In this document: piece after piece, positions 15,775 through 25,830 of the stretch
How the letters are laid out: the number at the start of each line of letters is the position of its first letter
Numbering within the stretch: the stretch's first letter is position 1
DNA from: Escherichia coli
GTDB lineage: Bacteria > Pseudomonadota > Gammaproteobacteria > Enterobacterales > Enterobacteriaceae
DNA length: 64,000 bases
Reading direction: 5' to 3' (one strand)
Assembly (NCBI RefSeq): GCF_044324875.1
Contig: NZ_CP172185.1
Program-made: the position numbers and the translations under genes
The notes under the pieces: model-generated
Databases searched by the model: none
Told to the model about the DNA's origin: nothing
Seen by the model: only the letters and a program-made list of their open reading frames with translations

Positions 15775-16680
15775 ATGCGTCGAACGTTTATCAAAAAAGA
15801 AGGCGTCGTCATCACGACACTGGCCCGTTATTTGTTGGGTGAAAAGTGCGGTAATCGACTGAAAACCATAGATGAGCTGGCAACTGAATGCCGTTCATCC
15901 GTTGGCCTGACGCAGGCCGCGTTGAAAACGCTGGAATCAAGCGGAGCGATACGGATTGAACGCCGTGGGCGCAATGGCAGTTATCTGGTCGAGATGGATA
16001 ACAAAGCATTGCTGACTCATGTGGATATCAACAACGTGGTATGTGCGATGCCCTTGCCCTATACCCGTTTGTACGAAGGCCTGGCGAGCGGATTGAAAGC
16101 CCAGTTCGATGGCATTCCTTTTTACTATGCGCATATGCGCGGCGCGGATATTCGCGTGGAGTGTTTACTTAACGGCGTGTATGACATGGCGGTTGTTTCC
16201 CGACTGGCGGCGGAAAGTTATCTCACGCAAAAAGGCTTATGCCTCGCGCTGGAGTTGGGGCCGCACACCTACGTTGGCGAGCACCAGTTGATTTGCCGTA
16301 AAGGCGAGTCCGCAAACGTGAAGCGCGTGGGGCTGGATAACCGTTCGGCGGATCAGAAAATCATGACCGATGTCTTTTTTGGCGATAGTGATGTGGAACG
16401 TGTCGATCTCTCTTATCACGAGAGTTTACAACGCATTGTTAAAGGCGATGTTGATGCGGTGATCTGGAACGTGGTGGCGGAAAACGAACTGACCATGCTG
16501 GGATTAGAAGCGACGCCGCTCACAGACGATCCGCGATTTTTACAGGCCACCGAAGCCGTGATCCTGACGCGAGTCGATGATTACCCAATGCAACAATTGC
16601 TGCGTGCAGTTGTTGATAAACAGGCCCTGCTTGCCCATCAACAACGAGTGGTCAGTGGGGAACAGGAACCCAGTTATTAA
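15775..16680 (+). CDS. yhfZ: Putative GntR-like winged-helix regulator YhfZ
   Basis: 301-aa ORF. The N-terminus (LKTIDELATECRSSVGLTQAALKTLESSGAIRIERRGRNGSYL) looks like a GntR-type wHTH. It is the first gene of the yhfZ-yhfS cluster, as in K-12. Confidence 0.85.
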   Translation: MRRTFIKKEGVVITTLARYLLGEKCGNRLKTIDELATECRSSVGLTQAALKTLESSGAIRIERRGRNGSYLVEMDNKALLTHVDINNVVCAMPLPYTRLYEGLASGLKAQFDGIPFYYAHMRGADIRVECLLNGVYDMAVVSRLAAESYLTQKGLCLALELGPHTYVGEHQLICRKGESANVKRVGLDNRSADQKIMTDVFFGDSDVERVDLSYHESLQRIVKGDVDAVIWNVVAENELTMLGLEATPLTDDPRFLQATEAVILTRVDDYPMQQLLRAVVDKQALLAHQQRVVSGEQEPSY

Positions 16681-16801
16681 ACGAAAGGCATCTGAAATGG
16701 AAACCAGACTCAACCTGCTTTGCGATGCAGGCGTTATTGATAAGGACATCTGCAAAGGCATGATGCAGGTCGTCAACGTACTGGAAACTGAGTGTCATCT
16801 A

Positions 16802-16807
16802 CCGGTG
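16802..16807. repeat. Target-site duplication CCGGTG (left copy)
   Basis: An identical hexamer directly abuts both IS ends. An adjacent A makes a 7-bp reading (ACCGGTG) possible if the IS is taken to end in ...TTTGC. Confidence 0.8.
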
Positions 16808-16880
16808 TGCGTATTCCGCTCTATTCGATCACGGATTGGCATCGAAGTCCGATCAGCGATTCGCATCCATTCGATCAACC
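16808..16880. repeat. IS end distal to istA: terminal IR plus about 3 subterminal repeats
   Basis: TGCGTATTCCGCTCT then ATTCGATCACGGATTGGCAT, TCCGATCAGCGATTCGCAT and ATTCGATCAACC. The repeats are about 23 bp apart and each contains a GATC (16827, 16851, 16873). Confidence 0.8.
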
Positions 16881-16906
16881 GGGAACTTAACTTTTTCTAC
16901 CGCTTT

Positions 16907-23063: not shown

Positions 23064-23417
23064 ATGAAAAAGATTGGTGTTGCAGGCTTACAGCGTGAGC
23101 AGATTAAAAAAACCATTGAAGCGACGGCTCCTGGCTGTTTTGAAGTTTTCATTCACAACGACATGGAAGCGGCAATGAAAGTGAAATCCGGGCAACTGGA
23201 TTACTACATCGGCGCGTGTAATACCGGTGCGGGCGCGGCATTGTCGATTGCCATCGCGGTGATTGGCTATAACAAAAGTTGCACCATTGCCAAACCAGGC
23301 ATTAAAGCGAAAGACGAACATATCGCCAAAATGATCGCTGAAGGAAAAGTGGCGTTTGGGCTTTCCGTTGAGCATGTCGAACACGCGATTCCGATGCTGA
23401 TTAACCATCTGAAATAA
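23064..23417 (+). CDS. yhfU: YhfU, uncharacterised small protein
   Basis: 117 aa counted from MKKIGVAGLQREQIKK. The track ORF adds 13 codons that overlap the php end. Confidence 0.8.
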   Translation: MKKIGVAGLQREQIKKTIEATAPGCFEVFIHNDMEAAMKVKSGQLDYYIGACNTGAGAALSIAIAVIGYNKSCTIAKPGIKAKDEHIAKMIAEGKVAFGLSVEHVEHAIPMLINHLK

Positions 23418-23428
23418 AAGGCACGACT

Positions 23429-24733
23429 ATGGATCTGTATATTCAGATTATCGTGGTGGCGTGCCTGACGGGTATGACATCGCTTCTGGCGCATCGCTCG
23501 GCGGCTGTTTTTCATGACGGTATCCGCCCGATCCTGCCGCAACTGATTGAAGGCTATATGAACCGTCGCGAGGCGGGGAGTATCGCTTTTGGTCTGAGCA
23601 TTGGTTTTGTGGCCTCGGTGGGGATCTCTTTTACCCTGAAAACCGGGCTGCTCAACGCATGGTTACTCTTTCTTCCTACCGATATCCTCGGCGTACTGGC
23701 GATAAACAGCCTGATGGCGTTTGGTCTTGGCGCTATCTGGGGCGTGTTGATCCTCACCTGTCTGTTGCCAGTAAACCAGCTGCTGACCGCGCTACCGGTG
23801 GATGTATTAGGTAGTCTGGGGGAATTAAGCTCGCCGGTGGTTTCAGCTTTTGCACTGTTCCCTCTGGTGGCGATTTTCTACCAGTTTGGCTGGAAGCAAA
23901 GTCTGATCGCCGCCGTGGTGGTACTGATGACCCGTGTGGTCGTCGTGCGCTATTTCCCACATCTTAACCCTGAATCCATCGAAATCTTTATTGGCATGGT
24001 GATGCTGCTGGGGATCGCGATAACTCACGACTTGCGTCATCGTGATGAAAATGACATTGATGCCAGCGGGCTTTCGGTGTTTGAAGAACGCACGTCACGG
24101 ATTATCAAAAACTTACCGTATATCGCCATCGTGGGAGCATTGATTGCCGCCGTTGCCAGCATGAAGATTTTCGCCGGTAGTGAAGTGTCGATCTTCACTC
24201 TGGAGAAAGCGTACTCCGCAGGCGTAACGCCGGAACAATCGCAAACACTAATCAACCAGGCAGCTCTGGCGGAATTTATGCGCGGACTGGGTTTTGTGCC
24301 GTTGATTGCCACCACCGCGTTAGCCACCGGCGTATATGCAGTTGCGGGCTTTACCTTTGTTTATGCGGTGGGCTATCTCTCGCCGAATCCGATGGTTGCA
24401 GCGGTATTAGGCGCAGTGGTTATTTCGGCGGAAGTCTTGCTGCTTCGTTCGATCGGCAAATGGCTGGGGCGCTACCCGTCGGTGCGTAATGCGTCGGATA
24501 ACATCCGTAACGCCATGAATATGCTGATGGAAGTGGCGTTGCTGGTCGGTTCGATTTTCGCAGCAATTAAAATGGCGGGTTATACCGGATTTTCTATCGC
24601 AGTTGCCATTTACTTCCTCAACGAATCCCTGGGCCGTCCGGTACAGAAAATGGCGGCACCGGTCGTGGCAGTAATGATCACCGGTATTCTGCTGAATGTT
24701 CTTTACTGGTTTGGCTTGTTCGTTCCGGCTTAA
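23429..24733 (+). CDS. yhfT: YhfT, polytopic inner-membrane protein (putative transporter)
   Basis: 434-aa ORF that is highly hydrophobic with many predicted TM segments. It sits in the yhf cluster position. Confidence 0.85.
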   Translation: MDLYIQIIVVACLTGMTSLLAHRSAAVFHDGIRPILPQLIEGYMNRREAGSIAFGLSIGFVASVGISFTLKTGLLNAWLLFLPTDILGVLAINSLMAFGLGAIWGVLILTCLLPVNQLLTALPVDVLGSLGELSSPVVSAFALFPLVAIFYQFGWKQSLIAAVVVLMTRVVVVRYFPHLNPESIEIFIGMVMLLGIAITHDLRHRDENDIDASGLSVFEERTSRIIKNLPYIAIVGALIAAVASMKIFAGSEVSIFTLEKAYSAGVTPEQSQTLINQAALAEFMRGLGFVPLIATTALATGVYAVAGFTFVYAVGYLSPNPMVAAVLGAVVISAEVLLLRSIGKWLGRYPSVRNASDNIRNAMNMLMEVALLVGSIFAAIKMAGYTGFSIAVAIYFLNESLGRPVQKMAAPVVAVMITGILLNVLYWFGLFVPA

Positions 24734-24744
24734 GGAAGGCACCT

Positions 24745-25830
24745 ATGAAGACGTTTCCTCTGCAAAGCCTGACGCTTATTGAGGCGCAGCAAAAGCAGTT
24801 TGCGCTGGTGGACACGATTTGCCGCCATTTTCCCGGCAGCGAGTTTCTTACCCGCGGGGATTTGGGCTTAACGCCGGGGCTGAATCAACCGCGCATTACC
24901 CAGCGAGTGGAACAGGTGCTGGCTGATGCATTTCACGCACAGGCTGCGGCGCTGGTACAGGGCGCGGGTACTGGCGCGATCCGTGCGGCGTTGGCGGCTT
25001 TGCTCAAACCGGGGCAGCGTCTTCTGGTGCATGACGCGCCTGTTTACCCGACGACTCAGGTCATTATTGAGCAGATGGGGCTGACGCTTATTACTGCTAA
25101 TTTCAATGACCTGTCGGCACTTAAGCAGGTCGTCGAAGAGCAACAACCGGATGCGGCTCTGGTGCAGCATACGCGCCAGCAGCCGCAGGACGGGTACATT
25201 CTGGCAGATGTGCTGGCAACGTTGCGCTCGGCTGGCGTTCCTGCATTAACCGATGACAACTATGCGGTGATGAAAGTGGCGCGAATTGGCTGCGAATGCG
25301 GGGCAAATGTCTCGACTTTTTCCTGCTTCAAGCTGTTTGGGCCGGAGGGGGTTGGCGCGGTGGTAGGCGATGCCGATGTTATTAGTCGGATTCGCTCCAC
25401 GCTCTACTCCGGCGGCAGCCAGATTCAGGGCGCTCAGGCGTTGGAAGTCTTGCGTGGGTTGGTGTTTGCGCCAGTGATGCACGCGGTGCAGGCGGGGGTA
25501 TCTGAACGGTTGCTGGCTTTACTTAACGGTGGCGCAGTGGCGGAAGTGAAAAGCGCGGTGATTGCCAATGCGCAGTCGAAGGTGTTGATTGTGGAGTTTC
25601 ATCAGCCGATTGCCGCCAGAGTACTGGAAGAGGCGCAAAAGCTCGGTGCCTTGCCTTACCCGGTCGGTGCAGAGTCGAAATATGAAATCCCGCCGCTCTT
25701 TTACCGTCTTTCCGGAACGTTTCGCCAGGCGAATCCGCAACTCGAACATTACGCGATTCGTATTAACCCAAATCGCAGCGGTGAAGAGACGGTGCTGCGG
25801 ATTTTGCGTGAGAGTATTGCCAGTATTTAA
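24745..25830 (+). CDS. yhfS: YhfS, putative PLP-dependent (fold-type I) enzyme
   Basis: 361-aa ORF and the last gene of the cluster. It matches K-12 YhfS as I recall it. Function is unknown. Confidence 0.8.
   Translation: MKTFPLQSLTLIEAQQKQFALVDTICRHFPGSEFLTRGDLGLTPGLNQPRITQRVEQVLADAFHAQAAALVQGAGTGAIRAALAALLKPGQRLLVHDAPVYPTTQVIIEQMGLTLITANFNDLSALKQVVEEQQPDAALVQHTRQQPQDGYILADVLATLRSAGVPALTDDNYAVMKVARIGCECGANVSTFSCFKLFGPEGVGAVVGDADVISRIRSTLYSGGSQIQGAQALEVLRGLVFAPVMHAVQAGVSERLLALLNGGAVAEVKSAVIANAQSKVLIVEFHQPIAARVLEEAQKLGALPYPVGAESKYEIPPLFYRLSGTFRQANPQLEHYAIRINPNRSGEETVLRILRESIASI

Follow-up and report, generated by a model that had tools for sequence, protein, structure and literature searches.

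This work concerns the yhfZ-yhfS gene cluster in a 64,000-nucleotide stretch of Escherichia coli contig NZ_CP172185.1 (the window, numbered from its first letter), in which an insertion sequence (IS) of the IS21 family has split yhfY. The explanation favored here, to which we assign a probability of about 0.55, is that the cluster is an ancient module of gene families with candidate operators for its regulator, YhfZ, at two places, that the IS acts as a loss of the YhfY input to this regulator, and that the neighboring fructoselysine (frl) operon is a coincidental companion. To identify the genes, a six-frame list of open reading frames (ORFs) of the window was compared with NCBIfam and Pfam profiles. 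All eight families are present and co-directional, in the order Z-Y-X-W-php-U-T-S, with yhfY interrupted. The ORF list and the profiles reproduce the genes, coordinates, and abutting or overlapping junctions given in an earlier note on this stretch (Table 1). The region is the already known, still orphan E. coli/Shigella locus that comprises yhfZY and yhfXW-php-yhfUTS.

The spacer between yhfY and yhfX holds a 26-bp palindrome (TAAATATTCA-AAAAAA-TGAATATTTA; general form TAAATATTCA-N6-TGAATATTTA) that is intact in the window. Counted with at most four mismatches within 130 nt upstream of yhfX, this 26-mer is present in 58 of the 60 Enterobacterales loci that have a yhfY-yhfX junction, where it lies 54-64 nt before the yhfX ATG. 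Across loci this spacer measures 83-140 nt, compared with 0-16 nt at the other junctions, and it has diverged between loci except for the palindrome. The motif WTTCA-W6-TGAAW occurs twice in the 64-kb window against an expectation of 0.02, and both matches lie at the yhf cluster, one of them in this spacer and the other at the second of two tandem sites immediately upstream of yhfZ. Before yhfZ, 63 of 72 species loci have the core TTCA-N6-TGAA, as one or two copies 24 bp apart, and the motif also precedes yhfZ in Vibrio, Cetobacterium, and a Fusobacteriaceae metagenome-assembled genome (MAG). It is absent from the Bacillus thuringiensis version of the cluster, which itself has no yhfZ. Among 17 distinct variants of the palindrome, only one-sided departures from symmetry are seen and there is no compensatory pair. 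An RNA hairpin was on this ground rejected, and the palindrome is consequently read as a protein-binding DNA site.

The palindrome is probably the YhfZ operator, and its presence before yhfX suggests a separate control region for yhfX-yhfS. Likewise, in an operon table carried by PMC4448311, php, yhfS, yhfT, yhfU, yhfW, and yhfX form one unit from which yhfZ and yhfY are absent. The earlier note had expected the IS to be strongly polar on yhfX-yhfS unless yhfX had a promoter of its own in 19705-19787. The polar default in this statement is probably wrong, and its proviso is favored by the intact palindrome and by the operon table. Because yhfX-yhfS seems to have its own control region, the IS likely removes the input of YhfY and not the expression of the enzymes.

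The two proteins encoded at the start of the cluster are consistent with a regulatory pair. YhfZ matches the full-length model YhfZ_full (NF041241, 374 bits) together with Pfam HTH_41 (67 bits) and YhfZ_C; its N-terminus corresponds to HTH_41 and not to PF00392 GntR, although the NCBIfam name is 'GntR family transcriptional regulator YhfZ'. E. coli YhfY has no Pfam match and a weak match to TIGR03582 (23 bits, cut-off 69). Its homologues in the Fusobacteriaceae MAG (E 1.7e-7) and in Clostridia match Pfam PRD, and eight diverse homologues from four phyla share one invariant His. We infer that YhfY is a putative stand-alone PRD-like protein. PRD regulators have an established link to the phosphorylation state of the phosphotransferase system (PTS), and by this analogy YhfY probably relays that state to YhfZ.

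In the proposed mechanism, YhfZ would bind the palindromes, autoregulate yhfZY, and separately control a yhfX-yhfS promoter, while YhfY would convey the state of the PTS or of phosphorylation to YhfZ. The IS would then act mainly by abolishing the YhfY input, along with any read-through from the yhfZ promoter, without abolishing yhfX-yhfS expression, which could become constitutive, reduced, or non-inducible. Transcripts from the yhfZ promoter probably enter 2.6 kb of antisense, untranslated IS RNA and end there, as untranslated transcripts tend to be terminated through Rho-dependent polarity. The strain is thus best seen as a regulatory (yhfY) mutant. The two operator regions would be ~1.3 kb apart without the IS and are ~4.0 kb apart with it; that this added distance is relevant, if the regions cooperate by looping, is speculation.

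Several other features were observed around these sites. Just past the trpS stop codon, at 15631-15655, a GC-rich hairpin runs into a stretch of T (aaaaaccggggaaacccggttttttt) and resembles a trpS terminator; because of this hairpin, yhfZ cannot depend on read-through from trpS. At 19750-19768 (~8106-8124 of the reference locus), the right half of the yhfX operator and the next bases read TGAAT-N5-ATTCA in Escherichia only. This sequence resembles an ARG box, and its downstream half is not conserved outside Escherichia. A weak minus-strand match to the motif (5-6 mismatches) recurs inside php of the Vibrionaceae loci (L068-L078 and L081 of our set, at ~8900), which could represent coding conservation or an internal site. 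Finally, Photobacterium frigidiphilum encodes a second yhfZ-like gene (48% identity; L081:20583 onward) ~7 kb downstream of its yhf cluster, with a motif-like site ~376 nt upstream of this gene.

The inserted element is 99.4-99.9% identical to copies annotated 'IS21-like element ISSso4 family', and the RefSeq copies are annotated with istA and istB. The order istA then istB, the TG...CA ends, the repeated sub-terminal motifs, and the short duplication place it in the IS21 family, and it differs from ISSso4 in nothing notable except its new insertion site. Its ends (TGCGTATT...TTTTGCA) are identical in three independent ISSso4-type copies; copies elsewhere have duplications of their own (CCGGG, CGGATG, and TCCT), 4-6 bp long, as compared with CCGGTG here. 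A right end ~9 nt beyond 19446, suggested by BLAST overrun, was rejected after three other copies were read; the matches beyond this position arise because the insertion targets are similarly GC-rich. Aligned to the intact E. coli locus, yhfY is cut after codon 37, and the 5' reading frame continues into the IS to a stop at 16957, which gives an 86-residue chimera. The start codon of yhfY is thereby parted from the family-invariant His encoded in the 3' fragment. This mapping, with both IS genes on the minus strand, bears out the earlier description of a 2.6-kb antisense IS that separates yhfZ and the 5' end of yhfY from yhfX-yhfS.

The remainder of the locus is ordinary E. coli sequence. The six genes downstream of yhfY have the lengths found in the intact reference locus, and a convergent frlR and the remaining frl genes follow yhfS as in that aligned locus. 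A megablast search of 5,426 complete E. coli genomes recovered the locus from essentially every one of them. Outside the IS, the best-matching strains share 98.7% identity with the window over 15000-26500. Positions 19447-44000 (24.5 kb) are collinear with E. coli DNA, and no complete genome exceeds 98.9% identity there; the window therefore seems to derive from a lineage with no close representative among these genomes, possibly Shigella. None of the 5,426 genomes carries this IS at this site in yhfY, and since the 2.6-kb insert is missing here in all of them, query coverage does not exceed 77%. The left IS junction was not found in the JGI metagenome contigs scanned, and the chimeric YhfY products had no exact match in a protein look-up. 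The exact YhfX sequence of the window is recorded in many assemblies, and all 23 of the 23 contigs read have an intact yhfY of 120 codons. Since the chimeric products and the junction are seen nowhere else, the insertion is taken to be strain-specific. The IS allele is an ordinary IS21-family event of little general importance, and it offers at most a natural yhfY-null background.

Table 1. Positions in the window of the yhf genes, the predicted operator sites, and the inserted element.
Feature	Position	Strand	Description
Palindrome TATCTTCA-N6-TGAAGATA	15725-15746		Upstream of yhfZ, in tandem with the next site
Palindrome TAAATATTCA-N6-TGAAAATTTA	15747-15772		Ends 2 nt before the yhfZ ATG
yhfZ	15775-16680	+	Intact, 301 aa; HTH_41 winged-helix domain and YhfZ_C ligand-binding-type domain; putative cluster regulator
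yhfY, 5' fragment (codons 1-37)	16697-16807	+	From alignment to the intact E. coli locus
Target-site duplication, left copy CCGGTG (6 bp)	16802-16807		Direct repeat flanking the IS
ISSso4-like IS21-family element	16808-19446	-	2,639 bp; ends TGCGTATT...TTTTGCA; repeated sub-terminal GATGCCAAA-N-GATCG motifs
istB	16907-17662	-	IS21 helper AAA+ ATPase; Pfam IstB_IS21, E 2.4e-60; coordinates transferred from annotated copies
istA	17679-19214	-	IS21 transposase; Pfam rve and Mu-transpos_C_2 in a long ORF
yhfY, 3' fragment	19447-19704	+	First 6 nt are the right CCGGTG copy; contains the family-invariant His (THM motif)
Palindrome TAAATATTCAAAAAAATGAATATTTG	19734-19759		In the yhfY-yhfX spacer, 54 nt before the yhfX start codon; intact
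yhfX	19788-20951	+	Intact; fold-type III (alanine-racemase-fold) pyridoxal-phosphate (PLP) enzyme, YhfX family
yhfW	20952-22178	+	Intact, abuts yhfX; phosphopentomutase-like, alkaline-phosphatase superfamily
php	22175-23053	+	Intact; 4-nt overlap with yhfW; phosphotriesterase-homology protein, amidohydrolase superfamily
yhfU	23064-23417	+	Intact; 10-nt gap to php; DUF2620, truncated RpiB/LacAB-like fold
yhfT	23429-24733	+	Intact; 11-nt gap to yhfU; polytopic membrane protein, YhfT family, presumed transporter
yhfS	24745-25830	+	Intact; 11-nt gap to yhfT; fold-type I PLP enzyme, YhfS family

To assess conservation of the module, one genome per species was sampled and the 80 loci that encode a YhfT relative were searched by tblastn with the eight proteins. 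Both yhfU and yhfT are present in 80/80 loci, php in 79/80, yhfZ and yhfX in 74/80 each, yhfY in 72/80, yhfW in 67/80, and yhfS in 44/80. A different gene order, Z-Y-php-U-T-X-W, is observed in Vibrionaceae and the one Fusobacteriaceae MAG. The yhfS gene is missing in Serratia, Yersinia, Ewingella, and Vibrionaceae, and yhfW is missing in several Yersinia. All eight families are present on contigs of Cetobacterium (an annotated plasmid), Clostridium paraputrificum, and Fonticella, whose YhfS homologues share 52-55% identity with E. coli YhfS. Since these distant versions hold all eight families, the set is considered to be old, with yhfS ancestral and secondarily lost. The same three versions add an amidase-signature-like protein, and that of C. 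paraputrificum also adds a PBP4B-like beta-lactamase-fold protein. A plasmid of B. thuringiensis carries the array PRD-DUF2620-YhfT-PTE-YhfS-like-YhfX-like, without YhfZ or YhfW. Judged by this distribution, the module is an apparently old, horizontally spread set of eight families in Enterobacterales, Vibrionaceae, Fusobacteriota, and Clostridia. That the genes form one functional module, as the earlier note had proposed, agrees with this neighborhood comparison, in which the families travel together across three phyla.

When neighboring genes outside the eight families were clustered, none recurred across distant lineages except a PTS EIIC gene; classical PTS EIIC genes lie beside the cluster in the Fusobacteriaceae MAG and in Photobacterium. 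At shorter range, a PAP2 acid phosphatase gene adjoins the cluster in Serratia-type loci and in one Enterobacter, a class-B (HAD-IIIB) acid phosphatase gene in Pluralibacter and in that same Enterobacter, and a KdgM-family porin gene in Pluralibacter. These phosphatase and porin genes lie on the same strand directly after yhfT in species without yhfS (L035:11339-12968; L050:11341-13044; L043:11359-12222). As neighbors of this kind, the acid phosphatases being termed periplasmic, they may hint at an anionic or phosphorylated substrate. A protein of ~295-303 residues is encoded in or beside the yhf clusters of Serratia and Pluralibacter (L044:4879-5763, L043:7507-8403, L035:13040-13951); neither Pfam nor NCBIfam matches it, and it lacks an obvious signal peptide.

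YhfX matches Pfam Ala_racemase_N (80 bits, N-terminal domain) and YhfX-like_C. It stays below the alanine-racemase equivalog level, its nearest NCBIfam model being ornithine racemase (32 bits, cut-off 480), and comparison of its profile with the Protein Data Bank (PDB) points to remote kinship with alanine racemase (E 1.5e-5) and D-threonine aldolase (E 5.4e-5). Ten YhfX homologues from three phyla all retain Lys61, the candidate PLP lysine on sequence grounds. YhfS matches Pfam Aminotran_1_2 and YhfS-like_C and is remotely related to methionine gamma-lyase and cystathionine gamma-synthase (~1e-10), as well as to cysteine desulfurases. Php matches NF007373 at 647 bits (cut-off 486) and Pfam PTE at 482 bits, contains HEHL at residues 12-15, and corresponds to PDB 4LEF at E 3e-193. 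The full-length match above the cut-off and the N-terminal HxH metal motif place it in the Php subgroup of the phosphotriesterase (PTE) family. In phosphopentomutases, an Asp-Thr pair holds the Thr nucleophile, and ADHGNDP and HTRE bind metal. YhfW matches Pfam Metalloenzyme, and only the YhfW-specific model PRK12383 passes its cut-off; the DeoB equivalogs TIGR01696 (143.5 bits, cut-off 341) and NF003766 (179.7 bits, cut-off 256) do not. It shares the superfamily and core of the Bacillus cereus phosphopentomutase (PDB 3M8W) and retains DS.G.G, DT..GH, D..GH, ADHGNDP, and HTRE, whereas its middle cap region is divergent and aligns poorly. YhfW therefore looks like a competent mutase whose substrate, given the divergent cap, may differ.

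YhfU belongs to DUF2620 and is modeled with an RpiB/LacAB-like fold (predicted local distance difference test, pLDDT, 94). Of the RpiB active site it conserves only the Cys-x-Thr-Gly motif, as Cys52-Asn-Thr54-Gly55, in which Cys52, Thr54, and Gly55 are family-invariant. This motif falls in a stretch that aligns weakly to RpiB (residues 32-61), and RpiB has its catalytic Cys-Gly-Thr-Gly in the equivalent stretch. The match to Pfam LacAB_rpiB is confined to the same residues and scores 13.6 bits (E 0.065; cut-off 24.7), below the threshold for sequence membership. With 117 residues, YhfU is ~30 residues shorter than the matched RpiB chains (148-158 residues). Two further elements of RpiB, its N-terminal Asp-His and the His-Asn that follows strand 4, are apparently missing in YhfU. 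An assignment of YhfU as a PTS EIIB was rejected on fold score and Cys position. Clostridial DUF2620 proteins also match Pfam Gly_rich_SFCGS over their full length. YhfT matches the YhfT family. Four database entries (P0002, P0006, P0011, and P0109) present YhfT fused to YhfU, Php, or YhfS, with 98-100% identity to the E. coli proteins; these probably reflect frameshifts or gene-calling errors, not real fusions.

Several results weigh against the favored reading. A consensus scan of 15550-20000 revealed no sigma-70 promoter in the yhfY-yhfX spacer and, on the plus strand, none in either regulatory region, that of yhfZ or that of yhfX, from which the promoters would be non-canonical or activator-dependent. 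The supplements of three papers on transcription start sites, in which a start for yhfX or yhfZ was sought, contain no yhf entry. The genes of Vibrionaceae, Fusobacteriota, and Clostridia form one tight array, the only palindrome in the Vibrionaceae and Fusobacteriota loci scanned lay upstream of yhfZ, and the Clostridial loci scanned had no obvious copy of the motif. Since the distant loci are single arrays and any palindrome found there lies only at yhfZ, the single-operon arrangement appears to be ancestral; read-through may still be relevant in E. coli, and the site near yhfX may serve as a roadblock or take part in looping instead of acting as a promoter operator. With respect to the enzymes, the cluster encodes no kinase to make a phosphorylated intermediate, and YhfU lacks the C-terminal part of RpiB and reaches only E 0.065 to LacAB_rpiB. 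The results on gene arrangement and promoters also speak for a single operon with one promoter, that of yhfZ, for the eight genes. In this reading, the antisense IS would halt transcription through Rho, which acts on the untranslated RNA past the stop at 16957, so that yhfX-yhfS would not be expressed and the cluster would be drifting toward decay. Such an operon would also account for the co-directional, tightly packed genes, and the 98.9% best match over 24.5 kb fits an IS-rich Shigella-type lineage, a kind in which catabolic loci are often inactivated. It sits poorly with a palindrome kept in the long spacer of 58 of 60 Enterobacterales loci, with the separate yhfX-yhfS unit of PMC4448311, and with the full length of all six downstream genes, and we regard it as rather unlikely. 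Another alternative is that the cluster is a partner of the fructoselysine operon that handles a related Amadori or glycated-amine substrate. The adjacency that would support it is limited to the window and to 2 of the 80 species-level loci, E. coli and E. ruysiae. In ~34 other Enterobacteriaceae species, the cluster lies without frl between trpS and other conserved opposite-strand genes, which we take to be cysG and the nir genes from the gene order of E. coli. In E. coli, frl sits between yhfS and cysG and thus looks like an insertion into the yhfS-cysG interval. No frl-type genes lie near the Vibrio, Fusobacteriota, Clostridium, or Bacillus versions, and no homologue of the frlB deglycase or the frlD kinase is found inside any cluster among the 80 loci. 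Because frl adjoins only 2/80 loci, the adjacency is uninformative about function; by this comparison, it is apparently an Escherichia-specific accident. We therefore set aside the earlier suggestion that proximity to frlABCDR hints at a related substrate and give very little credence to a partnership. Discarding this link spares a false lead.

For the biochemical role, the compound would enter via YhfT, and Php would open an ester, lactone, or amide bond, with help from the amidase-like protein in Clostridia. YhfX, with its racemase fold, and YhfS, with its gamma-lyase-like fold, would act on an alpha-amino center, while the mutase YhfW and the RpiB-like isomerase YhfU would act on a sugar-phosphate part. 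By analogy with SFCGS/DgaE-type clusters, and with a probability of roughly one in three, the substrate may be a sugar acid or lactone that is amino-substituted or phosphorylated, or else a conjugate of an amino acid with a sugar phosphate. The substrate of DgaE, D-glucosaminate-6-phosphate, is an alpha-amino acid whose polyol chain is phosphorylated, and a compound of this type (an amino-aldonate, its lactone, a phosphate of either, or a conjugate) would occupy every yhf enzyme. The acid phosphatase, porin, and EIIC genes beside some clusters are weak pointers in this direction. With its two sugar-phosphate-type enzymes, YhfW and YhfU, the cluster is compatible with the earlier guess of a phosphorylated or amino-substituted sugar or an amino-acid conjugate. 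The corresponding picture of an undescribed catabolic or salvage pathway, in which a YhfT-YhfU uptake unit and a YhfZ-PRD regulatory pair serve an amino plus sugar-phosphate or acid substrate in gut and marine Proteobacteria, Fusobacteriota, and Clostridia, is offered tentatively. If it is true, the strain is a natural yhfY-null mutant of this circuit. A different proposal is a novel PTS-type uptake system, in which YhfU is an EIIB-like phospho-Cys carrier, YhfT is an EIIC-like channel, the substrate is phosphorylated on entry, and phosphorylated YhfU phosphorylates YhfY. It would make sense of a PRD protein with an invariant His in the cluster, of the invariant Cys in YhfU, of the lack of a kinase, of the EIIC genes that adjoin the cluster in the Fusobacteriaceae MAG and Photobacterium, and of the position of yhfU beside or near yhfT in every locus examined (one gene intervenes in C. 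paraputrificum). The Cys is located after strand 1 in EIIB and at the end of strand 3 in RpiB. In the YhfU model it is at the end of strand 3, unlike EIIB; moreover, no EIIA is present, and YhfT scores no better against EIIC than against unrelated carriers, which leaves this uptake system distinctly unlikely. Salvage of D-amino-acid cell-wall material (peptidoglycan peptides or D-alanyl teichoic-acid esters), in which YhfX racemizes and YhfS degrades the released D-amino acid, is suggested by the PBP4B-like protein encoded between yhfU and yhfT of C. paraputrificum (NF002968, E 2.8e-91), by the amidase-signature-like protein of Clostridia and Cetobacterium, and by alanine racemases being the nearest solved relatives of YhfX. 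Among the loci examined, however, C. paraputrificum alone has the PBP4B-like gene, the similarity to amidases is low (21-29 bits across 30-60 residues), and the conserved YhfW mutase and RpiB-like YhfU are left unexplained. Cell-wall salvage is, on balance, unlikely.

The earlier statement that the cluster has no assigned pathway stands in the literature searched. In the full-text literature searched, no published function or pathway for the yhf genes was found, and the mentions are incidental (a lycopene knock-out target, antibiotic screens, and gene lists). Structures are deposited under the names 'uncharacterized protein YhfX' (4KBX), 'uncharacterized protein YhfS' (4J8L), 'hypothetical protein yhfZ' (2OZZ, C-domain), and, for Php, 'phosphotriesterase homology protein' (1BF6 and 4LEF). 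Recent papers use similar terms: one of 2026 (PMC12924614) places YhfW, as a 'putative mutase', among 'uncharacterized or less studied' genes, and one of 2025 (PMC12147183) calls YhfZ a 'putative transcription factor'. The yhf cluster is thus among the larger E. coli gene blocks without an assigned function, despite four proteins with solved structures. What is new here is the eight-family module across three phyla, the candidate YhfZ operator at two places, and the RpiB-like YhfU with its Cys-x-Thr motif. These three results would focus experiments, and each is directly testable.

Compared with known systems, the window matches the E. coli K-12-type yhfZ-yhfS locus in genes, order, spacing, and flanks, with trpS upstream and frlR downstream. 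In the RefSeq annotation, the K-12-type locus has a whole yhfY, whereas that of the window is split by the ISSso4-type IS. The SFCGS clusters, which presumably correspond to the EF_0829/AHA_3910 TIGRFAM set, have several components in common with the yhf cluster: a small Cys protein of the same superfamily beside one or more membrane proteins, a metal-dependent enzyme of the amidohydrolase superfamily, and a fold-type I PLP enzyme. This TIGRFAM set also includes a stand-alone PRD protein, and YhfY weakly matches TIGR03582. One such sister cluster, in the Enterococcus faecium element TnEFM-UMCG-1 (PMC11934601), consists of SFCGS, DUF4312/4311/4310, a metal amidohydrolase, a DgaE-family PLP ammonia lyase, and a KDGP aldolase. 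In contrast to the DUF4310/4311/4312 membrane proteins of the SFCGS clusters, the yhf cluster has the single YhfT. Where the SFCGS clusters have a DgaE/SelA-like PLP enzyme, the yhf cluster has one of the YhfS type together with a PTE-type hydrolase. Relative to these sister clusters, it has no aldolase and adds a racemase-fold PLP enzyme, a phosphomutase, and the YhfZ regulator.

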